NCBI GenBank assembly: GCA_963847185.1
Contig: CAWJYV010000010.1
Span: 96,001 to 160,000, forward strand
DNA: 64,000 nt
Direction: 5' to 3'
Origin: an uncultured Methanosarcinaceae archaeon
GTDB taxonomy: Archaea > Halobacteriota > Methanosarcinia > Methanosarcinales > Methanosarcinaceae
Program-made: the position numbers and the translations under genes
The notes under the pieces: generated by a model
Told to the model about the DNA's origin: nothing
Databases searched by the model: none
The model's input: the letters and a program-made list of their open reading frames with translations, nothing else
Part shown: piece after piece, positions 13,248-62,318 of the stretch
Layout: each line of letters begins with the position of its first letter
Position numbering within the stretch: position 1 is the stretch's first letter

Positions 13248-13646
13248 TCACTTTGAGTGATTGAGAGAGGCTTGTCTGCTCATCACTTTCAGCTTCTTGA
13301 TAGCAGAGATGGTTGCCTGAGATTCTTTGTAAATCTTGTCTTCGTAATAGCTTATGATTTCGTCAACTGGAGCCGCAAGAGAATAAATCTTCATCGGCCG
13401 CCCTTTTCCAGGCTTTTTTTCCGAGCGTACACTGATCCAGGATTGGTTGTGCATTAACCTTATTGCAATACTTACTTCGGGCTGCCTTAATCCGGTGCTG
13501 ATTTCAATTTCACGGGATGAAGCTTCGTCTACATTCATAAGATATGCCATGGTTGTAGCGACATTTCTTGACATGCTGAGATTCCTTAACGTTTCAATAA
13601 AAGTATAGTCTTCTTCATCCAATATTTTTACTTCCAAGTTTTTTAT
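13248..13646 (-). CDS. ArsR-like wHTH transcriptional regulator; start ATA 13646 or TTG 13637
   Basis: SREIEISTGLRQPEVSIA and KKPGKGRPMKIYSL motifs; GAGGGG SD precedes ATA. Confidence 0.85.
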   Translation of the reverse strand: MKNLEVKILDEEDYTFIETLRNLSMSRNVATTMAYLMNVDEASSREIEISTGLRQPEVSIAIRLMHNQSWISVRSEKKPGKGRPMKIYSLAAPVDEIISYYEDKIYKESQATISAIKKLKVMSRQASLNHSK

Positions 13647-13789
13647 GATAACCCCTCGATATTTCTAGTTTTATGGATAATTTGTCAGCTTAAAAGATAC
13701 TTTTATTACTCATTAAAGTTAAGGATACTTTATAAACGTTTTCAAATTATATGCACTTACATGAGATAACCTTGATCCGTACTGTAGCT

Positions 13790-13880
13790 GACTAGAAGCT
13801 ACGTACAAAGCCAAGGCTATCGCCCGTAGCCAGATGGACAAAATATACCCGGACGGCTCCACAACACAACTAAAACGAAT
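13790..13880 (+). ncRNA. Candidate small RNA, copy B
   Basis: CTAGAAGCtAcGTACAAAGCCAAGGcTATCGC matches 10392-10424; GGCTA/TAGCC hairpin; TTTATAAA box near 13729. Confidence 0.4.
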
Positions 13881-13898
13881 ACGAATGGGCCAAGTTTC

Positions 13899-14300
13899 TT
13901 ACCGTCTGACCTCGATTTCAAAACCGTTCTCTTTTGCAACATTGCTCATAAAATCCAATAATAAAAAACGGTGACAACGTTCTCCACATTCAGGACCTTC
14001 GTGGCTCACAAGAAAAATGTCATTTGATTGTGCTCTTTTGGCTGTTCGAAGGATTGCCACGCTGGGGACATGCGGTTGCATTTCCTCCAAGAATTGAAGT
14101 GTGAATTGCTCCCAGTCATCTTTTGTCCTTTGACTCTTGTTATAGTTGGCAATTAGTTTCTTGCTTGGGACTAAAGAATACTCGCGGTAACTGTATTTGC
14201 ATAACGGTTTGTCACGCATAACAGCAACGAACTCTGCGTTTGGGTGTGATTGTCTTATATTTTCAACATTTGCTGCATAAGTTTGGGATAACATTTTCAC
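13899..14300 (-). CDS. DUF488-like protein
   Basis: LVPSKKL, WEQFTLQFLEEM, ERCHR motifs. Confidence 0.65.
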   Translation of the reverse strand: MKMLSQTYAANVENIRQSHPNAEFVAVMRDKPLCKYSYREYSLVPSKKLIANYNKSQRTKDDWEQFTLQFLEEMQPHVPSVAILRTAKRAQSNDIFLVSHEGPECGERCHRFLLLDFMSNVAKENGFEIEVRR

Positions 14301-14689
14301 ATCTCTTTTTTGTTTTCAATGTCTTTTTCCTTTATCGTGCCCTAGATATTTGCTTAGTGTATAAGTATAATTCTCTTCGAGTATTGAAGCTGACGCAAAT
14401 ACGAGACTAAGTGAATACTTCGTGTCAGCACGTACGGGACTCTCCTAGACGTCCCAGATCTGGAACGTCTATATGCTTAAGGTTCAGGCTTCTGGGATAA
14501 TTGTGGAAGGGTGGTGCAGTAGATCTATCCTGAAGGCGCATACCCCCATACCTAACCAGAAACATTTTCTACAAAGATAGTGTTTGACTTGATAAAGTCT
14601 CCTGTTATTTGTTTCACCATCTCAAATTTAGATGGATAAAATTATACTTCGCGGTATACGTGAAAAAGAAATATGGCAAAGTTAAGATA

Positions 14690-15200
14690 GTATCTTGTTA
14701 TTTTGTGATTATTAGCAACTCGGGTTATGTACAGTATTTGTTTTTACTAAAAACTGTCTAACACTGGGGCTAAATAGGTAGATTTATACATTATAAATCA
14801 GGAGAATATTCATCTGTTTCTGACACTTCCACATTCTTCATCATATTTTCATTTACTTTATCGCATTGTTCAGCTGCACGGGCTAACCATAGTTTTACAC
14901 TGGCAGATTGTACCCTTAAAACATCAGCAATTGTTTCAATAATCATTCCTTTCATAGACATTCTCAGAGCTAATTCGATAGTGTTCTCATCTTTGCGAAG
15001 ATCATGATAAAAAGTGCCTGTATGGTCGCAAAAGGATTTGCCGCATTGATGGCAAAGATACCTTCTTGTTTTATTCCCACGACTTATGTAAATGCCATTT
15101 CCAGTAACATTGCCCTGATTAGTAAGGCCATAGAGCTTACAGTCTTTCTTAGGACAGGAAACGTCAAAAATTGTGGTTTTGGACCTCTTTTCCCCAGAGA
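14690..15200 (-). pseudogene. Degraded IS1-family transposase remnant
   Basis: Reads GKRGPKPQF/(shift)CPKKDCKLYG...RRYLCHQCGKSFCDHTGTFYHDLRK...ALRMSMKGM; frameshifted, lacks start; left boundary approximate. Confidence 0.7.
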
Positions 15201-15708
15201 GATCTATATCTAATGGTTAATATATAATTCCAATCGAATAAAAATTGACCATCTTTATTTTTGATTTTTTTCAATTCCTTTGGTTTTGTAATTATATTAA
15301 ATTTCGATACTGTTTTGATAAATTAATGGTCAATTACTTTTCTTTTATATCTTATCTATATTTATAATGAATCTTGCATTTTTCAGGATAACTATAAAAA
15401 TATATTAATTTATTGATTTGTAGTTCCAGTGCCTTATTTATTTGTGATTATTAATGAGATTTCCTTAATAATGTATTAATGGATAAAGAAAACAGTTCTT
15501 GCCATGTCTGTCCTTATTAAGTTCATATCTTTATTACTACACATATGATGATAATGTGAATCGATGCTGATTCATTCTATATGATACTATTTAAACACGT
15601 TTCTGAAAGTTCCCCGGGGTATAAAGTGGAATGAATTCCAATAAACAGAGAAATCTTTTTACCTTTTTTCGTAAATTAAATATTTTTACAATAATATTAA
15701 TCTCCACC

Positions 15709-15750
15709 AATATGTTTATATTGTACTTGCAATTAATTTCTAATTAATTA
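15709..15750 (+). promoter_or_regulatory. TATA-containing promoter motif shared by the surface-protein genes
   Basis: TTATATTG..TTG.A.TTAAT recurs at about 22228 and 25186, and more loosely at 19505. Confidence 0.5.
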
Positions 15751-15798
15751 TATGAAGTTACATTTGCATTTTCTTTGATTTCTATGGAGGAATTTGAC

Positions 15799-18700
15799 AT
15801 AAATCGAGTAAGACTTTTATTACTAGCTTTTTTAATCTTTACACTAAGTTCCTTTGTCGGGTCGGCTGCGACATATACAGTAGCCGCCGATGGAACTGGA
15901 AACTATGCAACAATACAAGCTGCAATAAATAACGCGGCTTCAGGCGATGTAATCATTGTACAACCTGGAACGTATTATGAGAACATTGATCTAAGCCGAG
16001 TTAGCGTAGAACTCAGATCAGCATCTGGTAACCCTGACAATACAATTATTGCGTCCAACAATACGCTCAAAAATGTGATCTCTGTTGTATCCAGAGCTGA
16101 TGTGAAAATTCAAGGTTTTACAATTAGTGGAGCTGCAGTAGATTACTCAGGAATCCGTTTAACTGGATGTAGAAACTGTGTAATTGAAAATAACAAATTT
16201 ATAGATAATGGAATGGGAGTGTTCGTAGATTCTTCTACATCTTGTACAGTACGCAACAACGTAGCTACCAGAAATGTAGGCGAATCTGGTAGAGGAATTA
16301 ATGTTGAAAGATCTCCTCTTACTACCGTTTCCGGCAACACAATTTCAAACCAGAGGTTTGGGATTTATTTTACTAACTCAGATAGTAATACTGTATCAGG
16401 AAATACAGTAAGTCACAGTGCAGGTAATGGTATCCATCTGGAAGGCACAACAAATACTGTTCTGGAAGGAAACAATGCAAATTCGAACGGGAACAAAGGA
16501 ATCTATCTGGCTGGCTCCAGTAATAAAAACATTGTGAGAGGTAATACAGTTTCCTCTAATGCAGGAAATGGAATTGACCTGGAGAGATCTTCTGGATGCA
16601 CAGTTTCTGGTAATACAGTCTCAGGTAATTCTACAGTAAACAATACTCATGGTATATTCCTGAACACCTGTAATGATAATTACGTGCAGAACAATGACGT
16701 TGGGACCTGTGATTACGGAATAGCTATGAGATTTTCCCAAAATAACACTGTGACAAGTAACAATGCCCATGACAACGACAGAGGCATTTTCGTAGCTTAT
16801 CAATCTACCAAAAATACAATTTCAGGTAATAAGGCAACGTCCAGCAGCATAACTGGTATTGTCGTAACGCTCGCAGCCAATAATATTGTTGTAGAGAACA
16901 ATGAAGTAAGCTCAAACCTAGGTACTGGTATATCACTTGACAATACAACAAGTGACAGAGTATCCAAGAACACAATAACCCAAAATGGTAAAGGTATTTT
17001 TTCAGGTGCGCTATCCAGCGGAAATATAATTTCAGAGAATACTCTGGACCGTAATACCGGCGATGGTATGCGGTTTGAAAGTTCCACTGATAACGATATT
17101 CTCTACAACGTCGTCAGTTCAAGCAACGGCAACGGAATATTTTTCGCAAGCTCAAGTAACAATAATGATGTAATCGGCAATACACTAAAAAACAGCAAGG
17201 TAGGTATCGAGTTAAGATACTCAAATGGAACTAAAATTTATCAAAACACTGTAACCGAAAATACTGGATCTGGAATTGCGCTCACGGTTTCCACGAATAA
17301 TACTATTTTCAAGAACACAGCTTTTAGCAATGTCGAAGGTATTACTCTCAACTCGTCTGAAAGCAACAACATATCCAGTAATAGCGTAAGTTTAAACAGT
17401 AATGGTATCTATCTATGTCCCAGAAGCTATTATAACCTGATTTATAACAACTATTTCAATAACCCCTACAATACCGATGTCAGAAATAATAGAAGCTACT
17501 GGTACATAGCAAAGACCAAAGGCAAAAATGTTATGGGTGGGCCAAATCTTGGAGGTAATTTCTGGGGAAGTCCGTCAGGTATGGGTTTCTCAGAGACTAA
17601 TCCAGATGCAGATGGTGACGGTATCATTGATTCTCAATTCACTTCAGCTAATGGTAACGTCGTAGACCTGTACCCACTCTTCCCTATGGAAGTTCCAATT
17701 CCACGTTTCATCTCCAGTTCTACGAGCGGATATGCTCCTCTCTTCGTGCAGTTCACTGATTCTTCACGAAATGCACTTTCATGGAGCTGGAACTTTGGAG
17801 ATGGAAATACTTCAACTCGAGAAAAATCCAAACCACACATACATCACTCCAGGAACCTATACCGTTACACTTGCAGCAACCAACGCTAACGACACTGTCT
17901 TCACAAGTCAAATAATAAGCGTACAGAAATTTATAATTCTTCCTGTGGCCGACTTCAGCGCCAGTGCAACGAGTGGCGATGCTCCTCTTACTGTGCAGTT
18001 CACTGACATTTCACAAAATGCAGTAGCATGGAGCTGGAACTTCGGAGATGGATCTACTTCTGCCGAAAAGAGTCCGGCACACACTTTCAATTCAGCAGGA
18101 ACTTATACTGTCAGTCTGGTAGCAGGTAATGAAAATGGAACTTCTCCAATACCGAAAACTGCTACAATAACTGTAACGACAGCAAGTAGCTCAAGTGGTG
18201 GAGGCAGCAGTGGTGGTCACAGCAGCAGCGGCAGCAGCGGTGGAAGCAGTAGTGGCGGAAGCGGTGGCGGTGGCGGTTCTCCCGAGTCTTCAAAGAACGT
18301 TAAAGTAAAGGAACTTTGTCAGGTCTTCATTACAAGTGGAAAAGCTGTGAAGTTTGATTTTACAAAGAATGCAACTGCTATTGTAAATTTGAACTTTGAT
18401 TCAAAGAAGACTGTTGGCAAGACAACAACTATTGTTGAAATGCTCAAAAACAAGTCCACGCTTACTCCGGAGACACCTGAAGGCGAGGTTTACAATTACC
18501 TCAATATCTGGGTTGGAAACGGAGGGTATGGAAGTGACGAAAACAATCTCGAAAACGCAGTCATAAACTTCAGAGTTGAAAAATCCTGGGTACAGGATAA
18601 AGGTATTGACCAGAGTTCAATAGTCCTGAACAGGTATAATGAAAAGAAATGGAATGAACTTACAACGACCCTTTCAGGAGAAGATGGCACATATCTCTAT

Positions 18701-18955
18701 TTCAAGGCCGAAGCCCCGGGATTCTCTCCGTTTGCAATAACAGGCGAGTTAACAGCAAAGGAAGCTGTGACTGAAACACAGCCTGAAACTGAGGACAATG
18801 AAGAAAACACCGGAAGTACAGCAGCAAATACTGAACAGGAGTCTGAGAATAAACAAGAAACAAGCACTCCTGAGAAAACTTCAAGTGCTCCTGGCTTTGA
18901 AATGATTTATGGAGTTGCTGGATTGCTTTCTGTATTTCTTCACAAAAGAAAATAA
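15799..18955 (+). pseudogene. NosD/CASH beta-helix, PKD, PGF-pre-PGF, PGF-CTERM surface protein split by a frameshift near 17818
   Basis: WNFGDGNTST continues as EKNPNHTY in the other frame; APGFEMIYGVAGLLSVFLHKRK sorting signal; start ATG 15784 or ATA 15799. Confidence 0.85.
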
Positions 18956-19004
18956 AAAAATGAACTGAAATATAAAGCAAAATTTCATTACGGAAGAAAT
19001 AAAG

Positions 19005-19027: not shown

Positions 19028-19585
19028 ATGTTTTCTTTACTTTTTTTATTTTTTGTCGGACGTGAGTTACTGAAAACCATGAGTACAGAGATCTTTTCTA
19101 TTTTTCCTCAAATGCCGTATCGTACTTGTCTTTTTCAGGTTTATCTAATGATTTTCGTCCAGACCTTTTCTAAGTTTTTCTCCCCTTTTTAAGTTTTTCT
19201 TTCCCCTTTTCTAAGTTTTTCTCCCCTTTTCTAAGTTTTTCTCCCTGGTTCTAAAATAATTTTCAAGAACATAATTTTAAAAAGAAACTTTATTAAGCTC
19301 AATTTCTTTGAAATCTGTTAAAGTAATAAATCTTTTTCTGCATCAAGGTGATTTACAGGGATTAAGTGCAAACATTATTCTTTCATAATCTGAGTTTAAA
19401 TATCAAAAGAAAGAGCCTATATAGTTTCTTTCAATAAACTCTTTGTTGATTATTGTTTTTCATATATTTTTATGTCTTTTTTTTGATATTATTCTAATTC
19501 AATATATTTATATGATTTAATGTTTAATTTGTAATTTATTAATTTAAATTTAAATAATAACTTATATAGAATGCGGGGGATGTAA

Positions 19586-21655
19586 ATAAACAGATATATC
19601 ACTTTAGCGGTAGCTTTTCTTATTTTAGCAATAAGCTCGAGTACAGGGACTGCAGCCGAGATTTTAGTTCAGCCAGGAGGATCAATACAGGCCGCAGTAA
19701 ATAATGCAAGTCCGGGAGATGAAATAGTCATAAGTTCCGGAAACTATACCGAAAATATCGTTATAACAAAGGATAATCTCGTAATCAGATCAGCGTCCGG
19801 AAGCCCTGAAGACACAATAATTGTGTCGAATAATAATGCTACGGATGTTTTCCGTATAGAAGCGGACGGCATCACAATCAAGGGACTCAGTATTGCAGGA
19901 GCTGCGATTGAAAAGTCAGCACTTTATCTTCTTTCATCCAATAACTGTACCATAGAAAATAATTTGATTCTTAATGACGCGCTTGGTGTATACTTAAAGA
20001 ATTCTATGTACAATAATATTCTCAACAATACGATAACAGAAGGCAGAAGAGCAGTTAACGTTGAAAGATCTAACTATAACACGATTCAGGACAATATTAT
20101 TTTAAAGCAGAGATACGGAGTTTACGTTTTCAACTCTGAAGGAAACAAACTATCAGGAAATATAATAAGTGAGAGTTCCAGTCATGGTATTGTTCTGGAC
20201 ACCTGTAGCAAGAACAGCCTTGAAGATAATGCAGCAAACTCAAACGGAGATTACGGCATTTTCCTTAAGTCTTCCGGTAATAATGATCTGACAAATAACA
20301 CTGCGGATTCAAACGTATTTTATGGTATCGGACTACTTGATTCGAGTAATAACAATATGGTCAATAATACAGCAGCCAATAATAATAGAGGTATTTTCCT
20401 GTTGAGATCAGGTGAAAGTACGCTTTTCGGTAATGTGATTTCGAATAATGGGGAAGGAATAAGGCTTTCATCGTCAGCAAATAGCGACATCTCAGAGAAT
20501 ACTGTCTCTGACAGTAATGTCTCAGGTATTTCTCTAATGAATTCTGCTAACTGTACTCTCGATGAGAACACGCTGTTAAATGATACTCTAGGGATAGATC
20601 TGGTTTTTTCCAACAACAGCAATGTCTTTAATAATACTCTCCATGAAGGCGGAAGGGGAATTAACCTGCGGGATGCGAGTTACAATACCCTGTCAAACAA
20701 TACTGCTCTGAACAACAAGAATGGAATTTACCTCCAGCGTTCACAGTGGAATATTTTCTCAAATAATACGGCAGGTTCAAACTATATCCACGGTATCGTC
20801 CTGGCAAATTCCAGTGATAACAGCTTTACAGACATCATTGTAAACTCGAACGAAGGTCATGGAATTTATCTAAGTAACTCGAGTAGCAATACTTTGAGTA
20901 ATTGCACGGTTTCCGGTAATGGTAGAGGTGTTTATATGACAACATCTGGTGCAAATACTCTATCAAACAACACAATTCAGAATAATAGAGAATACGGGCT
21001 CTTGCTGTATTATTCAGCAGGGAATAAGATTTCCGGAAATGAAATCTCAAATAGCGGAAGTGGCATTCACCTGATTACCTGTGACGGAAATATCATTTCA
21101 GGAAACACTATTATTTCAAACAGTATTTCCGGCATTTTCATAAGCTCTACAAGCAGCAATAATATTGTCTTTGATAATTACTTCAGTAACTTCTTTAATA
21201 CAGATCTTAAAGAGGGAAGTTTCGGTAATGTGTGGAATACAACAAAAACCGAAGGTACGAATATCGTAGGCGGTCCCTTTATCGGCGGGAACTTCTGGGG
21301 AAAACCTGATGGTTCAGGATTTTCACAAAGCGCAACAGATGTAGACGGGGACGGCATTGCTGATTCAGTCTACGATCTCAAGAACAACTATACAGATTTC
21401 CTGCCTCTTGTGGGTGGTTTTGAATCAGAGGTGTCCGCAACTCCTGTACAAAAACTCAATACCAGTGAAACGGGAACAGGGATAAACGAAACAGAAGCAG
21501 GCGAAATTGAAGAAGGCATCAGCGAAACAGAACCAGAAAGTATGGAAGAGAGCAACAACGAGACAGAAGCAGGTGAAATGGAAGAAGGCACCAATGAAAC
21601 AGAACCAGAAGGTATGGAAGAGGGTACTAACGAAACAGAATCAAATAAAATGTGA
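19586..21655 (+). CDS. Secreted NosD/CASH beta-helix protein with acidic C-terminal repeats; ATA start
   Basis: Open frame from ATA 19586 encodes a signal peptide and VQPGGSIQAAVNNA homologous to paralogs; in-frame TAA at 19583. Confidence 0.85.
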   Translation: MNRYITLAVAFLILAISSSTGTAAEILVQPGGSIQAAVNNASPGDEIVISSGNYTENIVITKDNLVIRSASGSPEDTIIVSNNNATDVFRIEADGITIKGLSIAGAAIEKSALYLLSSNNCTIENNLILNDALGVYLKNSMYNNILNNTITEGRRAVNVERSNYNTIQDNIILKQRYGVYVFNSEGNKLSGNIISESSSHGIVLDTCSKNSLEDNAANSNGDYGIFLKSSGNNDLTNNTADSNVFYGIGLLDSSNNNMVNNTAANNNRGIFLLRSGESTLFGNVISNNGEGIRLSSSANSDISENTVSDSNVSGISLMNSANCTLDENTLLNDTLGIDLVFSNNSNVFNNTLHEGGRGINLRDASYNTLSNNTALNNKNGIYLQRSQWNIFSNNTAGSNYIHGIVLANSSDNSFTDIIVNSNEGHGIYLSNSSSNTLSNCTVSGNGRGVYMTTSGANTLSNNTIQNNREYGLLLYYSAGNKISGNEISNSGSGIHLITCDGNIISGNTIISNSISGIFISSTSSNNIVFDNYFSNFFNTDLKEGSFGNVWNTTKTEGTNIVGGPFIGGNFWGKPDGSGFSQSATDVDGDGIADSVYDLKNNYTDFLPLVGGFESEVSATPVQKLNTSETGTGINETEAGEIEEGISETEPESMEESNNETEAGEMEEGTNETEPEGMEEGTNETESNKM

Positions 21656-22308: not shown

Positions 22309-24810
22309 ATGAATAAATTAATTATCTTGCTGATGGCTATACTCATTTTTGCATCAATTTCTGGGATCGGAACCGCAGCTGAACATGCTGTTTCGCCAGG
22401 AAATTCGATACAGACTACAGTGAACAGTGCGAGTCCAGGCGATGTAATTATCGTCAAGCCCGGAACTTATACCGAAAATGTCCGAATTACTACGCCAAAT
22501 TTAGTAGTCAAGTCAGAGTCCGGAAAGTCCCAAGATACAATAATTAAAACTGCAAGTGCAAGAGGATTCGATGTGGCAGCCAATGGTGTGACAATTAGCG
22601 GGTTCAAAGTTGAATCCGGAGAATCAGGCATACGTCTGGTTGGATGCAGTGGCTGCTCAATCACTAATAATGACCTTTCGAGTAATGATTATGGGATATT
22701 TCTGAATATTTCGAATTCCAATAAAATCTCGGGAAACACAGCAAATTTGAACAGTTTGTTTGGGATTTATCTCCTGAGCTCTGGACAAAATAATATCTCA
22801 TACAATAATGTAAATTCTAATCAAAGAGGGATTAATTCTATAACTTCAAATAACAATCAAATTATTGGCAATATTGCTTCGAACAACAGTGCTTATGGAA
22901 TGTGGATTTCGCAATCACATGATAACAGTATTTCAGGGAATACAGTTAGCGAATCCGGTGGCAATAACGGAAGAGGCGGGGGCGGAGGTATTCATTTCAA
23001 TTCTTCCAGCAGGAACGCAATCACCGGAAATACTGTCGCTTTTAACATCGGCTCAGGCTTTTTCGAGTGCCCGGGTTGTCATAATAACGTCGTGTACAAT
23101 AATTACGTAAACAATACCTACAATGCTAATATTAACACCAGGGATACTACCTGGTATTTAAATCCAACTTCAGGTACAAACATTGTCGGTGGACCATATA
23201 TAGGGGGCAATTTCTGGGGAACTCCTGCAGGAACAGGTTTTTCGAATACAGCACAGGATCTGAATAAAGACGGCATTGCGGATACAGGTTACAGTGTATC
23301 TAACATTACTGACAATTATCCGCTTGTAGTTGGAGAATCATACTTACCTGCTATAAAGCCTGTTGCAAACTTCAATACAAATGTCACCAGCGGTTATGCT
23401 CCTCTTACTGTCCAGTTTAATGACCTTTCATCGAATGTCGTAGAGAGAAACTGGGACTTTGGAGACGGAAGTAATTCAACCGAGCAGCGCCCGGTGAACA
23501 CTTATTATTCAGCAGGAAATTATACGGTTAACCTGACTGTAGCAAATCAAAATGGTATGAATTCAAAACTTGTCACGATAACTGTTTTGAGAAAGCCTGT
23601 TGCAAATTTCAGTGTCAATGTAACCAAGGGTCCTGCTCCTCTTGCTGTTCAGTTTACAGATCTCTCGCAGAATGCAGTTTCGTGGAGCTGGGATTTTAAC
23701 AATGACGGAGTGCCGGAGGCTATTGACCAGAATCCCGTTAATCAATACACAACTCCAGGAAATTATACCGTTAAGCTGATAGTAAGCAACGAAAATGGCA
23801 ATAATTCGACAACTCAAAAAATAATCGTGCAGGATCCAAAGGATCTTCCTGTAGCGAATTTCGGCACAAATGTCACCAGCGGTTATGCTCCTCTTGCTGT
23901 CCAGTTTACAGACCTTTCGCAAAATTCAATAGGAAGAGGCTGGGATTTCAATAACGACTGGCAGGGTGATTCAGGTGATGCAGCTCCTGTTTACGTGTTT
24001 ACAGAGCCAGGATCCTATAATGTTAACCTTGTTGCAATCAATGAGAACGGAACCGCCACAAAAACTACTACAATAATAGTATTAGAGGAAAGATCAAGTG
24101 GTGGAAGCAGCAGCGGTGGAAGCGGTGGTGGTTCTCCCGAGTCTTCAAAGAACGTTAAAGTAAAGGAACTTTGTCAGGTCTTCATTACAAGTGGAAAAGC
24201 TGTGAAGTTTGATTTTACAAAGAATGCAACTGCTATTGTAAATTTGAACTTTGATGCCAAGAAGACTGTTGGTAAGACAACAACCATTGTTGAAATGCTT
24301 AAAAACAAATCCACGCTTACTCCGGAGACGCCTGAAGGCGAGGTTTACAATTACCTCAATATCTGGGTTGGAAACGGAGGATATGGAAGTGATGAAGATA
24401 ATCTCGAAAACGCAGTCATAAATTTCAGAGTTGAAAAATCCTGGGTAAAAGATAAAGGTATTGACCAGAGTTCAATAGTCCTGAACAGGTACAATGAAAA
24501 GAAATGGAATGAACTTACAACCTGCCTTTCAGGAGAAGATGATAAATACCTTTATTTCAAAGCCGAAACAGCTGGATTCTCTCCGTTTGCAATAACTTCC
24601 AAAACCGCAGAAAAACAAACTGATGTTGAGATAAAGCCAGAAAACGCCGACGATAAAGAAAACACAGGAAATACCGCAGCAGACGTTGAGCAACAGCCTG
24701 AGAATAAAGAAAACACAAGCACTGCAGAGGAAATTCCAAGTGAGCCTGGCTTTGAAGTGATTTATGGAGTTGCTGGACTGCTTGCTGTATTTCTACATAA
24801 AAGAAAATAA
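22309..24810 (+). CDS. NosD beta-helix, 3 PKD, PGF-pre-PGF, PGF-CTERM surface protein
   Basis: Signal peptide, GGNFWG.P.G.GFS motif, WDF.DG PKD motifs, EPGFEVIYGVAGLLAVFLHKRK. Confidence 0.9.
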   Translation: MNKLIILLMAILIFASISGIGTAAEHAVSPGNSIQTTVNSASPGDVIIVKPGTYTENVRITTPNLVVKSESGKSQDTIIKTASARGFDVAANGVTISGFKVESGESGIRLVGCSGCSITNNDLSSNDYGIFLNISNSNKISGNTANLNSLFGIYLLSSGQNNISYNNVNSNQRGINSITSNNNQIIGNIASNNSAYGMWISQSHDNSISGNTVSESGGNNGRGGGGGIHFNSSSRNAITGNTVAFNIGSGFFECPGCHNNVVYNNYVNNTYNANINTRDTTWYLNPTSGTNIVGGPYIGGNFWGTPAGTGFSNTAQDLNKDGIADTGYSVSNITDNYPLVVGESYLPAIKPVANFNTNVTSGYAPLTVQFNDLSSNVVERNWDFGDGSNSTEQRPVNTYYSAGNYTVNLTVANQNGMNSKLVTITVLRKPVANFSVNVTKGPAPLAVQFTDLSQNAVSWSWDFNNDGVPEAIDQNPVNQYTTPGNYTVKLIVSNENGNNSTTQKIIVQDPKDLPVANFGTNVTSGYAPLAVQFTDLSQNSIGRGWDFNNDWQGDSGDAAPVYVFTEPGSYNVNLVAINENGTATKTTTIIVLEERSSGGSSSGGSGGGSPESSKNVKVKELCQVFITSGKAVKFDFTKNATAIVNLNFDAKKTVGKTTTIVEMLKNKSTLTPETPEGEVYNYLNIWVGNGGYGSDEDNLENAVINFRVEKSWVKDKGIDQSSIVLNRYNEKKWNELTTCLSGEDDKYLYFKAETAGFSPFAITSKTAEKQTDVEIKPENADDKENTGNTAADVEQQPENKENTSTAEEIPSEPGFEVIYGVAGLLAVFLHKRK

Positions 24811-25377
24811 ATGTATATAATGAGCATTTTTGACAGAAAAACCAATACGGAAAAGATGATTTGATTACAGAAAATATGTTCGATTAAAAAAAGATGATCA
24901 GATGAAGATTCGATGTCTTCATCTTATCTTACGCTTTTTTACTTTTATCCGGAAGTTTTAAATTATTTTCAGGAAGCATTTTGAGCTTGTTTTAGCTATT
25001 GGATTTTTACATTTCTTATTTTTGTATAATGATCCTCATTTCACAGATATACATAGAGACACTTTTTTGCAGATTTGCTCTGTTTTATCTGTTGGAAATG
25101 AGCTCGATTTTAAGTTAATTCCATACTGAGGAAAACTGTAACGTTTTCGTGAACTTCTTTAGAAAATTGTTTTTTAACCAGTATATTTATATTGTTTTGT
25201 ACTTAATTTTCCCACTTCACAAGTGATATTACAAATTGTTTAAATTAAACAAGCTTACATATAAACGCACACAGCTTACTTAGTCACTATTTATGTTTGC
25301 ATTAAACACATTTTTTAAAATCGAATTGATATGGCAGAAATTTAAAATCGCCTTCCTTAGTGAATGGAGGAATTGAA

Positions 25378-26769
25378 ATAAACAAATTAATTATTTCATT
25401 GTTAATTTTTCTCATTTTATTATTAAGCTCAGGTATTAGCACGGCAGCTGAGATTTTTGTTCAGCCGGGAGATTCGATACAGGCTGCTGTGAATAATGCG
25501 GTTACAAATGATGTAATTATCGTAAAACCCGGGAACTATAATGACAATATCAAAATAACCGTACATAATCTGACAATAAAGTCCGAATCCGGTAACCCTG
25601 TAGATACAGTGATTATTGCTAAAGACCCTGCTTTAGATGTTTTTACTGTAGAATCAACTAAAGTTACAATTAACGGGTTTAAGATTGAAGGAGCCAGTCT
25701 TAATCATTCAGGAATATATATGAATCAGTGCAAGAACTGCACTGTTGAGAATAACAGACTTTTGGAAAACTTCGTTGGGGTATATCTGAAAAATTCAGAG
25801 AATAACCTGATTCATGACAATTTGGTTGGTAAAGCTGATCACGGTATTGTCCTTGATCATTCTAACTATAATACGGTTTCAGATAACAGAGCCTCGAAAA
25901 ACAGATACGGAATTTATCTCCCAAATTCTAACAAAAATCTTGTAACAACTAATACTCTTTCAGAAAACAAAGATTATGGAATCCTGTTCTCAACTGCAGT
26001 TGGCAACACCCTCTCCGAAAACGAGGCATTTGATAACGGTAGAGGCGTTCATTTTGGCAATTCTGATGAGAATACGATTTCGAACAACAGGATTTATTCG
26101 AATAAAGTTTACGGGCTTTTCATCTGCCCAAGAAGCGATAAAAATCTGGTCTTCAACAATTATTTCAACAATACTGTTAATGCCCTCCCGAATAATGGGA
26201 CAGATAATTCCTATAATATGGAGAAAACCTCAGGTGAAAATATTGCCGGTGGTCCTTATCTTGCAGGAAACTTCTGGGCATTACCCAATGGTACAGGCTT
26301 TTCGGAAACTGCAGTTGATGCGAATGGAGACGGCATTGCAGATGAGAAATTTAAGATTGAAGTAAATAGCAGCTATATTGATTACCTGCCCCTTGTAGCA
26401 ATTAAACATACAGAGTCAATTCTTCCTGCTGCAAACTTCAGCGCAAATACTACAGGTGGTCCTGCTCCTCTTTATGTTACGTTTACCGACCTTTCGGGAA
26501 ATGAAACTGGAAGAAACTGGGATTTTGAAAGCGACGGAAACATTGATTCTGAAGAGGAAAGTCCGGTTCACAAATATCCAGATCCCGGAATCTACACTGT
26601 AAATCTTACAGCTAGTAATGAAAACGGAACTGCCTCTAAAAATATAATAATAAGTGTAACAGCAGAAAGTGCAGAGACAAAGCAAAATGGAATTATGAAT
26701 ATGCCGGGTTTTGAATTGGTTTACGAAGTTATTGGCCTGCTTGCAGTCTTCCTGTACATCAGAAACTAA
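25378..26769 (+). CDS. NosD beta-helix, PKD, PGF-CTERM surface protein; start ATA 25378 or GTG 25360
   Basis: ATA AAC AAA TTA ATT aligns with ATG AAT AAA TTA ATT of the 22309 paralog; MPGFELVYEVIGLLAVFLYIRN. Confidence 0.88.
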   Translation: MNKLIISLLIFLILLLSSGISTAAEIFVQPGDSIQAAVNNAVTNDVIIVKPGNYNDNIKITVHNLTIKSESGNPVDTVIIAKDPALDVFTVESTKVTINGFKIEGASLNHSGIYMNQCKNCTVENNRLLENFVGVYLKNSENNLIHDNLVGKADHGIVLDHSNYNTVSDNRASKNRYGIYLPNSNKNLVTTNTLSENKDYGILFSTAVGNTLSENEAFDNGRGVHFGNSDENTISNNRIYSNKVYGLFICPRSDKNLVFNNYFNNTVNALPNNGTDNSYNMEKTSGENIAGGPYLAGNFWALPNGTGFSETAVDANGDGIADEKFKIEVNSSYIDYLPLVAIKHTESILPAANFSANTTGGPAPLYVTFTDLSGNETGRNWDFESDGNIDSEEESPVHKYPDPGIYTVNLTASNENGTASKNIIISVTAESAETKQNGIMNMPGFELVYEVIGLLAVFLYIRN

Positions 26770-26882
26770 AAAGAATATCGGAAGAGTGAAAGCGCATTAG
26801 ATAAATGGAAAAAATGTATAGAAAACTAAAAGGTTGCAACTAACTCTGAAAAAAGAATTTTAACCATGAAGAAGGGATTTTC

Positions 26883-27539
26883 ATAAGGTCATGGGAAGCT
26901 TTTGATAGATATGCGGATGAATACGACTCCTGGTACGAGCGGTATAAACCTGCATATGAATCCGAACTCCTTGCTCTTAGAAAATTTCTTCCCGAAAACC
27001 TAGAAAAATTAAAAGCCCTTGAAATCGGAATTGGAACTGGCAGGTTTGCATATTCTCTTGGAATAGGATTTGGCCTTGAACCTTCAGGGTCTATGGCAAA
27101 AATAGCAAAAAAACGAGGTATTGAAACAGTTCTCGGTGTTGCCGAATTCCTGCCATTCAAAAAACAGAAATTTGACCTTATTTTGATTGTTACTGCAATT
27201 GCCTTTTTTAATGAGCCTGCCCAGGCACTCAGAGAAACGTTCAGGATCTTAAAGCCAGGAGGACAACTTATTTCAGGCATACTGGATAGAGACAGCCCTC
27301 TAGGTAGTATTCTCGATTCAGGGAAAAATTCAAGCAAATTCTCTTATGGGGCTCATTTTCTTTCAGCGACAGAAGTATCTATATTCTTGCAGGAAGCCGG
27401 ATTTGAAAATATTGAAGTCTGCCAGACTCTTTTCAGGCAGCCTGAGAAAATCGAAAACATTGAATTTCCGGAAAAAGGACATGGGAAAGGAATTCTTGCA
27501 GTGCTTTCTGTCAGAAAGCCTGCTAGAGAGCCTCAATGA
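26883..27539 (+). CDS. Class I SAM-dependent methyltransferase; non-canonical start
   Basis: Open frame upstream of ATG 27093 holds FDRYADEYDSWY and motif I LEIGIGTGRF; in-frame TGA at 26847. Confidence 0.8.
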   Translation: MRSWEAFDRYADEYDSWYERYKPAYESELLALRKFLPENLEKLKALEIGIGTGRFAYSLGIGFGLEPSGSMAKIAKKRGIETVLGVAEFLPFKKQKFDLILIVTAIAFFNEPAQALRETFRILKPGGQLISGILDRDSPLGSILDSGKNSSKFSYGAHFLSATEVSIFLQEAGFENIEVCQTLFRQPEKIENIEFPEKGHGKGILAVLSVRKPAREPQ

Positions 27540-55794: not shown

Positions 55795-56781
55795 TTAAGA
55801 GCTGCTTTCAGTTTTTTCCATGCTAAATGGTTTTATTTCAGTACCTGGAACGATAGATTCTTCAGGCCTTCCGAACCAGGGAAGGGAAGCAAGTGCACCA
55901 ATTACCCCGTTGCCGTCCAGCAGAACTTCCACGCCGTTTTCTTCTGCACATTTCAGAGCATCGGCTTTCGAGACCCTTTCAGTCCTGCAGCGGTTACTGT
56001 ATCCATACATCCCTTTTGCGTAAAAATCAGACAGAACAACCATTCCTGTCTGGCCTGAAGCACTATATTTTTGAAGTGCCCTTTTGAACGCTTTTGTGAG
56101 CCTGGATTTAGCATTCTGATCCACACAGCCAAACTCAAGCACTGTAGACATGCAATTCTGGGTTTTTTCCGGGACCGGGAAGAGCTGGACAAGAGAATGA
56201 GAAAGATAAACGGCTTCAGGACAGTCAATTTCCTTTGCGATATTATGTGTCAGGGTCCATGTAGCTCCCGTATCTTTAGAATCCGTATCATCTATACCTA
56301 TCAGGACACGGTCTCTTCGAGGAACTACAATTGTTCCTCTGGCGCATTTTTCTCCTCCTGATTCGGAAATATTATAGCTAAGAACTCCATCAGCAAAAGC
56401 TCTACAACGAGTTGCGCCCACGCCTCCGCCCCCTAAACCAGCATATGTAATTTCAACTTCATCTCCTTGAACGATAACAGATTCAATACCTGCAGCTGCC
56501 ACCGAGGCCTTTAATTCAAGTTTTGAGGTTCCGGTTTTCATGAAATAACGGATCATATTTCCGTTTGAATGGGCCTTCAGCACAAGGGGAGCTTTCGAAT
56601 AATGGTAGAGGGACCAGGCAGCTCCGCTGTAGCAGTTGGAATGCTCAATAACCTCAGCATACTCATTTTTCGCGTCACAGACTGCATAAATACCCCTGTA
56701 AGGTACGGTATAAGGGTCATCCAGAGTTATTTCTTCAATATCTCTGTTGTCCAGAGCACAGGCGTTTATATGTTTTGTAAT
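55795..56781 (-). CDS. Methanogenesis marker protein 11 (TiaS-related IGIDDTD domain); probable ATT start
   Basis: Open frame upstream of 56583 encodes DPYTVPYRGIYAVCD...EHSNCYSGAAW; YAGLGGGGVGA; IGIDDTDS; GGAGGT 6 nt before ATT. Confidence 0.85.
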   Translation of the reverse strand: MTKHINACALDNRDIEEITLDDPYTVPYRGIYAVCDAKNEYAEVIEHSNCYSGAAWSLYHYSKAPLVLKAHSNGNMIRYFMKTGTSKLELKASVAAAGIESVIVQGDEVEITYAGLGGGGVGATRCRAFADGVLSYNISESGGEKCARGTIVVPRRDRVLIGIDDTDSKDTGATWTLTHNIAKEIDCPEAVYLSHSLVQLFPVPEKTQNCMSTVLEFGCVDQNAKSRLTKAFKRALQKYSASGQTGMVVLSDFYAKGMYGYSNRCRTERVSKADALKCAEENGVEVLLDGNGVIGALASLPWFGRPEESIVPGTEIKPFSMEKTESSS

Positions 56782-56936
56782 TAGAAGACCTCCTTCTTAA
56801 GAGGAATAGGAAGTGAGAAGGATATTCATTTGATTGAAAAGCCCATCTCTTATACATTATATACAGATATGTTATAGTAAATTAAGATCTCAAGTCGTTT
56901 TACTCAATTTACATATTGAGTTAATTTTAAAAGTTC

Positions 56937-56988
56937 AAGAGTTAGAATCTGACGCTACGATTTAAGAGTTAGAATCTGACGCTACGAT
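56937..56988. repeat. Tandem duplication of 25 bp (AAGAGTTAGAATCTGACGCTACGAT), period 27
   Basis: Exact copies at 56937 and 56964. Confidence 0.9.
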
Positions 56989-58100: not shown

Positions 58101-58505
58101 AAGGCCGTTAAATTATGCAGATTGTTAGAGAGAAACCCCCGATAGACCTTGTCTTCAAAGTTAGCTCATGGGCACTCAGACAAGAAGTTGAGCAAAAAGA
58201 CAGAAACACTGATTCATTTGAAATTTACAGCTGTTTAAAGGAATTCGAAACAGCAAACTTTGAAACCCGAAACCCTAAAATGAGATTTTTAGTTCCACTC
58301 AGTCCCAGTACCCTATCTGGGGATATATGTAAGGTTGAAGAGTCAGGTTTAGATTTTCTGCATGTTGCAGAGAACAACTCTTTAGATTCTAATCTTAAAT
58401 TGACCGAAGATAGCTTGCAAATTTTTACTGGCTTGGAGACAAAATCCTGCTCCTGCTGGTTAGCCCTGGAAAACAGGAATTAAGGGCGTAAAAACGGGTG
58501 TTAAC

Positions 58506-60050
58506 ATGCCAGTTAACCAATCGGTCAATAGGATAGTTTCAGGTTCCACTGTAATACTTGCAGGAACCTTTATCGGAATGCTTTTAGACATCCTTATTAA
58601 AAAAGTACTTACATCCCATCTCTCCCCATCAGACTTTGGTGTATATTCCCTTGCACTTACAGTTATTTCAATTACAGGTGCAGTTGCAACTCTTGGACTC
58701 AATGAAGGAGTGCCAAGATATATTGCGTTTTTCAGGGGCAGAAATGAGGATCAAAAAATACATGAGCTTATAATATCAGCCATAATTATGGGCTTGCTTA
58801 CAGGCTTGCTTGCTATCCTTGTCTCACCATCATTGTTTCACAGTCTAGCAGGAGAGGGATTTGATACACAGGGGAAAATTTTTTCCGTAGTCAAAATCCT
58901 AGTGTTTGCAGTTCCTTTCACCATACTCCTGAATCTGACAGTAGCCATCTACAGGGGATTCGACCATACAAATGTAAATATGTACTTCTACAATATTATA
59001 AGGCCAGTCTCTCTGCTCGGATTTGCTTCAGCTGCCGTATTCGTCGGAGTTTCATTAAAAGGAGTCGTACTTGCAGATTTACTTTCAATGGTCTTTACCT
59101 TTGGTATAATGGCTCTATACTTTATAAAGAGACCACCAATTAAAACGGAATGGAAGCTTAAATTCAGCGAGCCCACAAAGCAGCTAATAAGATATTCATT
59201 CCCGCTCTTGATAACTGCAACTCTGCTGAATCTCATGAGCTGGATAGATACCATAATGCTTGGCTACTTCAAATCAGCTGAAGTAGTTGGAGTTTACAAT
59301 GCAGTATACCCTATTGTTGGGTTTCTGTCCCTGGTAATAGCTTCCATGGGTTTTGTGTACGTTCCTGTGGCTTCAAAGCTCTGGGGTCTTAATAACACTG
59401 AACCAATTGGCTCTATTTACGCAGTAATGACCAAGTGGTGCTTCCTGCTTACATTCCCAATCTTTGCACTGGTGTTCGTGTATCCTGAGTTTCTTATCAC
59501 GAAACTCTACGGAGCTCAATATGTAGGTGGTGCTACTGCCCTGCGCATCCTTGCTATGGGATTCATAGCAAATTCATACTTCGGATTTAACTACCATACT
59601 TTATTAGCGTCTGGAGATTCGGATTTCCTGATGAGATGTTCGGTAGCAAGTGCAGGACTTAACGTCATTATTAACTTCATGCTGATACCTGAGTATGGCA
59701 TGGTAGGTGCAGCTATAGGGACTGCCGTATCATATGCATCTATCGAAGTCTTAATGACTTTAAGAGCCTGGAGAAAGCAGAAAATGCATCCCTTTACTTC
59801 AATGTACAGGAAATTAACTGCTGTTTGTATTTTCATGGTTGTATCCATGCTTGCAGCGAAAAACGTGCTTATGCTTACAGGGGCAATCTGGGAGTACGTA
59901 ACTTTCATAGTTGTGTATTTCCTAATTGTTCAGCGTACCAATATACTGGACAAAGTTGAAATGGATATGATAGGAGATCTCCGAAAGCTCATTAGGCAAA
60001 ATGTAAGTACTTCCATCCCAAAGACACTTAAACACTTGAATCATGACTAA
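58506..60050 (+). CDS. Polysaccharide flippase (Wzx/MOP family)
   Basis: LSPSDFGVYSL, LGLNEGVPRY, IDTIMLGYF, VGVYNA, LIPEYGMVGAA; about 14 TM. Confidence 0.9.
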   Translation: MPVNQSVNRIVSGSTVILAGTFIGMLLDILIKKVLTSHLSPSDFGVYSLALTVISITGAVATLGLNEGVPRYIAFFRGRNEDQKIHELIISAIIMGLLTGLLAILVSPSLFHSLAGEGFDTQGKIFSVVKILVFAVPFTILLNLTVAIYRGFDHTNVNMYFYNIIRPVSLLGFASAAVFVGVSLKGVVLADLLSMVFTFGIMALYFIKRPPIKTEWKLKFSEPTKQLIRYSFPLLITATLLNLMSWIDTIMLGYFKSAEVVGVYNAVYPIVGFLSLVIASMGFVYVPVASKLWGLNNTEPIGSIYAVMTKWCFLLTFPIFALVFVYPEFLITKLYGAQYVGGATALRILAMGFIANSYFGFNYHTLLASGDSDFLMRCSVASAGLNVIINFMLIPEYGMVGAAIGTAVSYASIEVLMTLRAWRKQKMHPFTSMYRKLTAVCIFMVVSMLAAKNVLMLTGAIWEYVTFIVVYFLIVQRTNILDKVEMDMIGDLRKLIRQNVSTSIPKTLKHLNHD

Positions 60051-60130
60051 CTGCCGTAATTAACAACGGCATATCTCTTTTAGAGATGCCGACATTTGAT
60101 TTTTTTACTTATTCTAACTGAAGAGACTTA

Positions 60131-60258
60131 AGGCCTATCCTAAAAGTGGTTACTTGCTGTAACTTTCACAATTTTCAATATGTAAAACCAAAGGACTACT
60201 CTGAGATTATGTGCTGATTGTGACTTTTCAACATGCCACTGACTTTTCGGATAGGCTT
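60131..60258. mobile_element. MITE-like element
   Basis: Imperfect TIR AGGCCTATCCTAAAAGT / ACTTTTCGGATAGGCTT; no ORF. Confidence 0.6.
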
Positions 60259-60626
60259 TTATATGTAAATGCAATTTTGAGAACAGAACTTGCTTCCTAA
60301 ATTTCGGATAGATTCATTGAGTTTAATATTCCTCTCTTATATAAAAAACTCAAAACTTATTTTCTTATACTAAAATGACTTGATGCAAATAGTATCAACC
60401 TCATAGTTTTCTTCTTTTTTACCTACTCATAATCGTCGAAGTTTATACTATATTTAGTTCTGTTTTGCCCCAGCTTTACAATTTTTATCCTGTGGAGTTA
60501 AATGCCAGCAGTTTACTGAATTTTTATTTTCATTTATACTCCATTCTTTGCGGAAAAAACAATTTTTGAAAAAATTTAATAAGAGATGATTAATAAAAGT
60601 TCAATACATTATAAGCTAGGGGAAAC

Positions 60627-61457
60627 ATGAGCCGGGAGTACATAGCAAATTTGGTTATCAAAACAGTAAAGGAATGGCTGGAAGACGATGCAATGACTTA
60701 TAGCGCCGCGCTGGCATTTTATTTTGTATTAAGTATTCCTGCTCTATTGTTATTCTCGGTATCTATAGGAAGCATTTTTTTGAAATCGGAAAATATCCAG
60801 AGCACAATACTCGATAACCTGCATGGAGTTGTTGATGAGAGAGTAATAAATATGGTGGTCTTGCTTTTCGAAAGTATTCCGGAAATTAACTCTCTTTCGA
60901 TAAGTGCATTAATAGGTCTTATACTTCTTCTCTGGAGTGCAAGCAACATCTTCAGGCAACTGAGAAATTTTCTTGAGAGAGCCTGGGATATTAAGCCTGC
61001 TGAATCCAGAGGTGTCAGAGATTTCATAAAAAACACGATCATATCTTTCATTTTTGTCATCACTTTTGGCGGGCTACTGATAATAAGTATAATTGTCGAG
61101 GGAGTTATATACATGAGCTCAAGCCTTTTTCATGAAATTTTGCCATTCTCACCTTTAATAGCTAATTATGCAGGTTCCATAGCCAGTTTCCTGATTCTTG
61201 TTTTCTTTTTCATGCTTGTATACAGAGTTCTTCCTAATACAAAACTTGATTTCAAAGCTGTTTTTGTAGGATCGCTTGTAACAGTAATACTTATAACAAT
61301 AGGAAAATATGCCGTTGGACTTTTTTTCACATACAGTAACCCTACAAGCGTTTATGGTGCAGTAGGATCGATAATAGGATTATTTCTTTTAATTTTTTAT
61401 TCTTCAATCATGATGACAATTGGTGCAGAGTTCACAAAAGTTTATTCAGAATCTTAG
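60627..61457 (+). CDS. YihY/virulence factor BrkB family membrane protein
   Basis: SAALAFYFVLS.P, LLWSAS, YGAVGSII, GAEF. Confidence 0.9.
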   Translation: MSREYIANLVIKTVKEWLEDDAMTYSAALAFYFVLSIPALLLFSVSIGSIFLKSENIQSTILDNLHGVVDERVINMVVLLFESIPEINSLSISALIGLILLLWSASNIFRQLRNFLERAWDIKPAESRGVRDFIKNTIISFIFVITFGGLLIISIIVEGVIYMSSSLFHEILPFSPLIANYAGSIASFLILVFFFMLVYRVLPNTKLDFKAVFVGSLVTVILITIGKYAVGLFFTYSNPTSVYGAVGSIIGLFLLIFYSSIMMTIGAEFTKVYSES

Positions 61458-61847
61458 AGGCCGTCTTAAGATTCAAACCATTTCTACACCTGGATTGGAC
61501 ATTGTTGCTTTTAAATTCAGACTGCAAATTCATTATACAGGACTTGCTTTCTCGATGTATAAAATCAAATACATTAAATAATGGCAGTGTGTAGATTTTT
61601 CTGTAAAATCACAATTTCAAAAAGTTGCTGAGTAGAAAATTACATATCGGAAGATCAATTGTTCTCATCTTACACAAAAAATTGACTTCAAATTTACAGC
61701 AAATTCACTACACTGCCGAATAACTATTGTAAGAACTTTTATATCTTTTGAAAATAATATATAATGTGTACGCGAAAATTATATGTTAATAATGAGTTTC
61801 TGAAAGGCTTTCTGTCTGATTGTCTTTTATATAGAGGGGGAAAATAT

Positions 61848-62318
61848 ACGGATTTCAAAAAATTGTTTAAGAATAAAAGTGGAGTATCACCTGTTCTTGG
61901 TGTCATTATGATGCTTGCAATAACTGCAATCCTCGTTGCAATAGGTGTATCAAGCGTTGCCAACATGGAGCCTACCTCTTCTTTATCGGGGGTAAGTATT
62001 GGAATTGCAGCAAATTCTACTGCTACTGACACTGCCCCCGCATCTGTAAAACTCGAACACCTTGATGGGGCTCCGATTGAATTTGGAGACTCAACATTAA
62101 CGAAAGTTACAGCGTCTCTTAATGGAGGCGAGACTGTTATAATTAACGCTACCTGTATTAACACTTTGAGTATAGGTGATGTCAGGATACTTCCTTTAAC
62201 ATCGGATGGCACTACAAACGCTTTTGGAAAAGGCCCGGTGTCTGGTGATACTGCCACTATTAAAATTATCGATCTGAAGGCAAATCAAATCATAAGCGAC
62301 AGCGATGTTATGTTCTGA
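61848..62318 (+). CDS. Archaeal type IV pilin-like protein (DUF1628); ACG at the expected start position
   Basis: KSG/VSPVLGVIMMLAITAIL class III signal, LEHLDG; GGGGG SD 7 nt before ACG. Confidence 0.75.
   Translation, partial: TDFKKLFKNKSGVSPVLGVIMMLAITAILVAIGVSSVANMEPTSSLSGVSIGIAANSTATDTAPASVKLEHLDGAPIEFGDSTLTKVTASLNGGETVIINATCINTLSIGDVRILPLTSDGTTNAFGKGPVSGDTATIKIIDLKANQIISDSDVMF

Follow-up and report, generated by a model that had tools for sequence, protein, structure and literature searches.

Probable near-cognate start codons behind Shine-Dalgarno motifs in a Methanosarcina genome

We analysed a window of 64,000 nucleotides (nt), C10:96001-160000, of an archaeal genome (labelled G000; 4.04 Mb in 10 contigs), in which seven genes carry ATA, ATT or ACG at the place where a translation start is expected from the position of a Shine-Dalgarno (SD) motif. 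Because G000 encodes tRNA-Pyl and its proteins are 88-93% identical to public entries named Methanosarcina, we treat it as a Methanosarcina species. The 3' tail of its 16S rRNA reads ...GGAUCACCUCCU, and the ideal SD is therefore AGGAGGUGAUCC. In all start comparisons ATG, GTG and TTG are termed canonical, and the seven other codons one base from AUG are termed near-cognate.

Seven near-cognate codons at Shine-Dalgarno spacing

A sequence-only reading of the window had placed near-cognate codons 5-8 nt behind an SD in seven genes, and direct reading of the sequence found all seven where it had put them. The SD is GGAGG, GGGGG or GAGGGG at six of the sites and a weaker AAGGGA at the seventh (26883; sites are named by the first base of the proposed start codon). 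Duplex energies between these SDs and the 16S tail range from -6.5 to -11.8 kcal/mol, and the SDs are kept in orthologs. For three genes (19586, 26883 and 56781) the same reading had reported that no in-frame ATG, GTG or TTG precedes the conserved N-terminal region; we likewise found none between the preceding stop and a point 66-79 codons into the open reading frame (ORF). Four further sites (13646, 15799, 25378 and 61848) have ATA or ACG at SD spacing, as it had stated.

The gene for methanogenesis marker protein 11 (mmp11; 55795..56781, minus strand; TIGR03280, 393 bits) has ATT at 56781-56779, 7 nt after the GGAGG (56793-56789) within AAGGAGGT. A stop lies at 56799-97, and the first canonical start, GTG 56583, follows 66 codons downstream. 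The gene for a class I S-adenosylmethionine-dependent methyltransferase (26883..27539, plus strand; Pfam Methyltransf_11) has ATA at 26883-26885 behind AAGGGA, 6 nt after AAGGG, with a stop at 26847-49 and a first canonical start, ATG 27093, 70 codons downstream; the conserved N terminus of the protein begins at the ATA. In G000 an out-of-frame mini-ORF of six codons (ATG..TAA, window positions 26866-26886) overlaps this ATA (ATAA).

Three of the remaining sites, together with a comparison copy, belong to paralogous surface-protein genes. The first of two NosD/beta-helix genes (19586..21655, plus strand) has ATA at 19586-19588, directly after a TAA and 6 nt after GGGGG (19575-19579); its first canonical start is GTG 19823, 79 codons downstream, and the product from ATA opens INRYITLAVAFLILAISSSTGTAAE, which reads by eye as a signal peptide. 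The TAA forms part of an in-frame ATG-TAA pair (window 19580-19585), whose ATG is found in one other genome, G009. This pair and the mini-ORF before 26883 are probably incidental, because the mini-ORF is lacking in the closest ortholog and the ATG is shared with G009 only. The second NosD/beta-helix gene (15799..17889, plus strand; Pfam NosD, Beta_helix) has ATA at 15799-15801, 8 nt after GGAGG (15786-15790), with an in-frame ATG five codons upstream that overlaps the SD. A NosD/PKD gene (25378..26769, plus strand) has ATA at 25378-25380, 7 nt after GGAGG (25366-25370), with an in-frame GTG six codons upstream. In the surface proteins generally, the stretch after ATA looks like a signal peptide by eye. 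The sequence-only reading had noted a fourth paralog with ATG at the homologous position, and this is the case for the surface protein gene at 22309..24810 (plus strand). In the Pfam scan this paralog matched PGF-CTERM; the 25378 protein gave no PGF-CTERM score, and the C-terminal tail read from its translation, PGFELVY..LLAVFL, resembles the PGF-CTERM of 22309.

The last two genes are a paralog of the MreA-family regulator (13248..13646, minus strand; NCBIfam NF053756, 151.9 bits) and an archaeal type IV pilin-like gene (61848..62318, plus strand; Pfam Pilin_N). The former has ATA at 13646-13644, 5 nt after GAGGGG (13657-13652), and an in-frame TTG three codons downstream as an alternative start. 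The latter has ACG at 61848-61850, 7 nt after GGGGG (61836-61840), with an in-frame ATG 28 codons upstream and a TTG five codons downstream. The MreA family is multi-copy in G000, with 11 matches at E <= 1e-20, several of them 80-89% identical; most congeners have 2-9. G000 has three pilin matches.

Start codons in orthologs, across the genome and in public gene calls

We searched 40 other genomes of the genus and aligned the codon homologous to each proposed start, with up to 30 loci per gene and the G000 locus counted among the rows; the 38 pilin rows include paralogs. Such alignments had been named as a check by the sequence-only reading, and they showed five of the seven codons to be conserved across the genus.

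For mmp11, a single-copy core gene, the aligned codon is ATT at all 30 loci, and AAGGAGG is conserved. A stop directly precedes ATT at 12 of the 30 loci, and 20 have no upstream canonical start. The protein alignment starts at residue 1, with identities of 82-96%. The first five codons do not vary at any of their three positions, the next five hardly at all, and codons 16-25 show variabilities of 0.07, 0.06 and 0.29 at codon positions 1, 2 and 3; because this variation falls mainly on third positions, the stretch before the first canonical codon is coding-like. The ORF is open at all 30 loci read, and four further genomes in the same search have an in-frame stop.

The mmp11 leader (window 56779-56840, minus strand; loci L021-L050) is unusually conserved, and in the RNAalifold consensus of 27 distinct mmp11 sequences a CCUCC(C) box lying some 27 nt upstream can pair with the GGAGG SD. 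The leader could be a control element that sequesters the SD. The fold of the single leader sequence is not significantly stable (z = -0.30), and the CCUCC/GGAGG pairing shows no covariation in the 27 distinct sequences.

The methyltransferase start is more varied, with ATA in 10 of 19 rows, ATG in six, and ATT, ACG and CTG in one each. All 19 rows have a G-rich, SD-like motif upstream by eye, and the ORF is open in 18. On a maximum-likelihood tree of the 19 rows, the start codon changed state at least five times, with ATA present in both major clades. Identities across the mmp11 and methyltransferase orthologs are 61-96%.

Among the surface proteins, the codon at 15799 is ATA in all 23 rows. 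At 19586 it is ATA in 26 of 29 rows and ATT, ATC and ATG in one each, with a stop immediately 5' of this codon in 17. At 25378 it is ATA in 16 of 20 rows, ATT in one and ATG in three, and these three are the most distant (46-52% identity). As the three ATA sites are in paralogs, they represent fewer than three independent events.

At 13646 and 61848 the near-cognate codon falls exactly where relatives have ATG. The MreA paralog has ATG in 28 of 30 rows and ATA in two (G000 and G046), and the pilin has ATG in 36 of 38 rows and ACG in two (G000 and its closest relative, G009). The two ACG genomes do not share an upstream frame, and G009 lacks the TTG near 61848. From these alignments, five of the sites are old and conserved, and two are recent substitutions on an ancestral ATG.

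The pattern extends beyond the window. Ftr (formylmethanofuran:tetrahydromethanopterin formyltransferase), a core methanogenesis enzyme, is encoded by a single-copy gene that has an ATA start in G000, and 29 of 30 loci sampled over the order have ATG (28 loci from other genera and that of the congener G017). A query of five congener genomes found ATA in four as well (G009, G016, G024 and G042; the fifth, G041, gave no row), with proteins 92-99% identical and divergent upstream sequence. Because this core gene is open and so well conserved in the ATA species, the comparison argues strongly that ATA would support adequate initiation of ftr. Judging by Ftr, it also suggests that near-cognate starts need not be severe brakes.

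To estimate how frequent such starts are, we compared stop-to-stop ORFs of G000 with those in the first 2.0 of 3.13 Mb of the congener G048. From 2238 reciprocal best pairs we dropped 941 for low coding score or short alignment and another 128 that were overlapping shadow ORFs or scored low, and we searched the remaining 1169 up to 15 codons either side of the point where the conserved region begins. An aligned SD in both genomes, with ATG, GTG or TTG in both, was found in 360 pairs. The sequence-only reading had proposed a genome-wide scan, and in this one 70 of the 1169 pairs had a shared SD site followed in both genomes by a near-cognate or canonical codon and in at least one by a near-cognate codon. 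In a control, 200 random sets of seven other codons gave a mean of 21.1 pairs (standard deviation 6.7, maximum 47). When 58 codons were ranked singly, ATA came first with 17 pairs, followed by CTG and ACG (15 each) and ATT (14), then GAA (12), TTT (10) and AAA (9).

We also applied a strict rule that allows no canonical codon from the upstream stop to nine codons past the site. The seven near-cognate codons then gave 18 pairs, of which 10 had the same codon in both genomes, seven paired a near-cognate with a canonical codon and one was mixed. The 51 other codons gave 10 same-codon pairs and none against a canonical codon; mixed pairs were tallied for the near-cognate codons only. Near-cognate codons in G000 face canonical ones in G048 at 16 sites, and the reverse holds at 13; this exchange is about equal both ways, and the trait therefore belongs to the genus. 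As a rough estimate, between 1.5% (strict rule) and 4% (excess over control) of ortholog pairs are near-cognate, or roughly one in ten of the genes whose shared SD can be recognised.

In G000 taken by itself, ATA is associated with SDs (odds ratio 3.1, p = 2e-4). A crude scan for SD, codon and long ORF with no coding filter gave a weak signal, with 31 ATA sites versus 21 with a mis-spaced SD. In the G000-wide scan TGG (odds ratio 5.3) and TCA (odds ratio 3.5) were also enriched behind SDs in coding-like extensions; they may be codons that neighbour true near-cognate starts, as in the methyltransferase (ATA AGG TCA TGG). Near-cognate codons in the genome-wide list precede recognisable N termini, for example IKIAITGKGGVGKTT, with a P-loop seven residues in. 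ACG directly behind an SD is kept in G000 and G048 for three genes, two of them right after a stop codon (in G000, C1:256430 and the regions of C8:418732 and C7:167687). One of the three products begins SKVYFADLR, carries two C-x2-C-x2-C-x3-CP motifs and by eye resembles a ferredoxin; another contains LVTGLDCADCAAKVEK and looks heavy-metal-ATPase-like by eye; the third gene is a small ORF. In this comparison ACG starts seem about as frequent as those at ATA.

The sequence-only reading had predicted that gene callers would truncate such genes, and the public Methanosarcina entries for mmp11 and Ftr are indeed scattered in length and mostly shortened. Listed mmp11 entries with at least 82% identity to our query sequence, several under the name Methanosarcina, run from 241 to 350 amino acids (aa). 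In nine such entries the N termini differ, and the NCBI Methanosarcina mazei entry (346 aa) is called from an ATG further upstream and so runs across the SD. In other genera most listed mmp11 entries have 294-303 aa, and five that we read start MKEIEL, MKEVEL, MRDIEL or MRLSDP. Methanosarcina-like Ftr entries have 249, 263, 275, 278 or 292 aa, versus 297 aa in species with an ATG start, with at least 12 clusters of 275 aa and seven of 263 aa. In the accessible part of a ribosome-profiling study of M. mazei, the starts mentioned are only ATG, GTG, TTG and CTG (PMC11456600). We found no publication on ATA, ATT or ACG starts in Methanosarcina or methanogens in a search that left out most subscription journals and supplements. 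The mechanism is of a known kind; its frequency in Methanosarcina we did not find in print.

Probable initiation at near-cognate codons and the alternatives

On this comparative evidence we hold, with considerable confidence, that the near-cognate codons are genuine SD-led translation starts and that their use is a genus-wide trait. Ordinary genes would very probably start at ATA, ATT, ACG or CTG in a few per cent of cases, core genes of the methane pathway among them. Conservation, exchange with ATG and the genome-wide excess all support the proposal of the sequence-only reading that this lineage routinely initiates SD-led genes at near-cognate codons. Its argument against random error also stands, since orthologs either keep the near-cognate codon or swap it with ATG at the exact position and the excess extends over the genome.

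Initiation would proceed as follows. The small ribosomal subunit would be anchored by pairing of the 16S tail with an SD 5-8 nt upstream of the start, and the ordinary initiator Met-tRNA (anticodon CAU) would be accepted on a codon with one mismatch, at the third base for AUA, AUU and AUC, the second for ACG and the first for CUG. The protein would thus begin with Met at the near-cognate codon and keep its full N terminus, be it a signal peptide, a P-loop or the start of a conserved domain. Over evolution, near-cognate codons would replace ATG and revert repeatedly, some becoming fixed across the genus, such as the ATT of mmp11 and the ATA of the surface proteins. The reading of these codons by initiator tRNA, Met as the first residue and the yield of protein are the parts of this scheme that we infer.

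Nothing about the translation apparatus of G000 looks unusual. Its tRNA genes include two tandem copies of an initiator-type tRNA(CAU), recognised by eye from the A1..U72 ends and an anticodon stem with three G-C pairs, as well as an intron-containing elongator tRNA-Met and a tRNA-Ile2(CAU), whose roles were read from their sequences. Among these genes we found no UAU anticodon and no third initiator-like tRNA, and aIF1 (PF01253) is present with an ordinary ATG start. Special decoding machinery was therefore rejected as an explanation. The ARAGORN list also contains, relative to its other tRNAs, an unusually large number of tRNA-Cys(GCA) genes, ten in all, eight of them in two clusters of four (C1:147043-148817, C1:218650, C2:49490 and C8:1424-2517).

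Several observations weigh against reading these codons as starts. At four of the seven sites (13646, 15799, 25378 and 61848) G000 has a canonical codon in frame close by. Chance would account for about 21 of the 70 genome-wide pairs, and 739 of the 1169 pairs have no shared SD site and are not classifiable. Mean SD energies are -8.86 kcal/mol at near-cognate sites (n = 57) and -8.89 at canonical ones (n = 360; Mann-Whitney p = 0.51), both sets having been pre-selected for an SD core. Codon 5 of the methyltransferase ortholog in G013 (L013) is an in-frame TAA, and an in-frame TAG interrupts the signal-peptide region of the 25378 ortholog in G002 (L127); in each case the gene is an isolated pseudogene or the sequence is in error. 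In Methanosarcina, TAG is able to encode pyrrolysine. In the G000 assembly, gene 15799 is frameshifted (+1) at a run of five A (17813-17817), which reflects either a homopolymer error of the assembly or a real pseudogene. Finally, the start positions were called from comparative evidence, from which we infer translation at these codons.

The frame of 15799 that is broken at the A-run resumes in the ORF 17732..18955. At 17817 one base is missing from an RNA-library contig (X18) of a related strain from the environment, a change that would fuse 15799..17889 with that ORF and restore the PKD-domain reading (...EKNPNHTYITPGTYTV...).

The near-equal energies also led us to reject the idea that, as in Staphylococcus aureus, a longer or stronger SD compensates for a weak codon; the longest SD match is 4.61 nt at near-cognate sites versus 4.97 nt at canonical ones.

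Translation might instead start at a canonical codon up- or downstream, the near-cognate codon being an ordinary Ile, Thr or Leu codon or untranslated. The canonical codons near four sites in G000 would permit this, as would those upstream and in frame at 10 of the 30 mmp11 loci, one of which the NCBI M. mazei call uses, and in other genera mmp11 begins roughly 15 residues later, at MKEIEL... The alternatives are not conserved, however. The SD-overlapping ATG of 15799 occurs in only 14 of 23 rows, the upstream GTG of 25378 in only six of 20, and the TTG of 61848 is missing from G009. No canonical start yields the conserved N terminus at 19586, 26883 and 56781 in G000 itself, nor across orthologs at 15799 and 25378; at 13646 and 61848, with TTG or ATG nearby, exclusion of a canonical start is ambiguous. 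Directly preceding stops exclude upstream starts at many loci, and downstream starts would cost the signal peptides seen by eye, the GKGGVGKT P-loop of C3:17034 and the MEINGVEIEDT of Ftr. The conserved SD spacing of 5-8 nt fits the near-cognate codon and not the alternatives. We therefore regard a start elsewhere as improbable.

A different explanation is that ATA, ATT and ACG are inactivating mutations of ATG and that the genes are silent or decaying pseudogenes. In its favour, the two recent cases, 13646 and 61848, lie in the multi-copy MreA and pilin families, gene 15799 is frameshifted, and single orthologs of the methyltransferase and of 25378 contain in-frame stops. Against it, the same codon is found in up to 30 of 30 species with open ORFs and 82-96% protein identity, single-copy core genes (ftr and mmp11) are affected, and the position toggles between ATG, ATA, ATT, ACG and CTG while the gene persists. 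The signs expected of a pseudogene (further lesions, lost constraint and patchy retention) were not found, judging by the open ORFs at the 30 mmp11 loci read and in 18 of 19 methyltransferase rows; the 15799 frameshift in G000 is an exception. For the conserved cases pseudogenisation is excluded; the frameshifted 15799 copy may be a pseudogene, and 13646 and 61848 could conceivably be. As a general account, loss of start codons is very unlikely.

A peculiarity of the RNA or of decoding could be imagined, either A-to-I editing of AUA to AUI or a fraction of initiator tRNA modified at C34 and so able to read AUA. Modification of C34 in tRNA-Ile2(CAU) makes CAU read AUA, the tRNA-Ile2(CAU) system is present in G000, and ATA is the commonest near-cognate codon. 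ATT, ACG and CTG are nearly as frequent, however, and because four different codons are used almost equally, no single editing or modification event suffices. In addition, no extra initiator-like tRNA was found in G000, and, as weak evidence, an RNA-library contig over 19586 has no listed change at the codon. We give this explanation very little credence. The public runs that contain this DNA supplied only metagenome and metatranscriptome contigs, with shares of at most 0.24; such contigs cannot reveal starts, strand or translation, and uncovered parts were left uninterpreted.

A sequencing or assembly error hiding a true ATG is next to impossible: nothing was found in its favour beyond the likely homopolymer miscount at 17813-17817, which shows that the assembly is imperfect, and it is excluded by the same codons in independent assemblies of up to 30 genomes, while two environmental DNA contigs (X1 and X5) and an RNA-library contig (X19) span 19586 with no difference at 19586-19588 among the rows listed.

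Initiation at near-cognate codons as a genus-wide trait may, more speculatively, reflect a relaxed and expanded start repertoire of the lineage, in which AUA, AUU, ACG and CUG serve even highly expressed core enzymes such as Ftr and genus-wide essential genes. We put this forward as a possibility that we hold to be rather doubtful. If true, start identity would drift almost neutrally among at least five codons, and the stringency of the aIF1, aIF2 and initiator-tRNA checkpoint would be altered, as opposed to gene-by-gene down-tuning.

Consequences and comparison with known systems

Genetic studies of methanogenesis use Methanosarcina species as their main models. If 1.5-4% of genes are affected, dozens of N termini per genome would be mis-stated; among the annotation errors would be surface proteins deprived of their signal peptides, and Ftr and Mmp11 called too short. 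Such errors would spread to protein databases, structural models, knock-out designs and the search spaces of proteomics. The genus would also lend itself, as a tractable archaeal system, to studies of how eukaryote-like initiation and SD pairing together set the stringency of start-codon choice, and mmp11, with its conserved leader and ATT, is a candidate for the regulatory use of weak codons.

In Escherichia coli, infC, which encodes initiation factor 3 (IF3), and pcnB have SD-led AUU starts, about two chromosomal cases that are tied to autoregulation by IF3. As there, the near-cognate codon in Methanosarcina lies at normal SD spacing and would be read by initiator tRNA, and the combination of ATT and a conserved leader makes mmp11 infC-like. 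Unlike in E. coli, dozens of genes would be involved, the factors are the archaeal aIF1, aIF1A and aIF2, and no autoregulatory loop is evident: aIF1 starts at ATG, and by profile scans none of the seven genes encodes an initiation factor.

In eukaryotes, near-cognate initiation at CUG, ACG, AUU and other codons is policed by eIF1. It occurs by scanning, without an SD, and mostly yields upstream ORFs or N-terminal extensions beside an AUG form. The two systems are alike in that ACG and CUG are in the repertoire and the archaeal initiation factors are homologous. They differ in that the main ORF in Methanosarcina would have no start but the near-cognate codon, which follows an SD.

The accessible part of a study of Staphylococcus aureus and Bacillus subtilis describes starts behind extended SDs at infC (AUA), ccpN (AUA), cvfC1 (AUU) and citZ (AUA), and S. 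aureus reporters in which AUA or AUU, in poor (RPMI) medium, reached about 10% of the signal from AUG (PMC13009471, Nat Commun 2026). As far as that part goes, the two cases agree in that AUA and AUU starts are conserved among relatives, depend on an SD and are missed by annotation. It describes four sites per genome, whereas we estimate that 1.5-4% of ortholog pairs are concerned here. The SDs described for S. aureus are extended, whereas in Methanosarcina SD strength equals that of canonical genes, and ACG and CTG are used as well.

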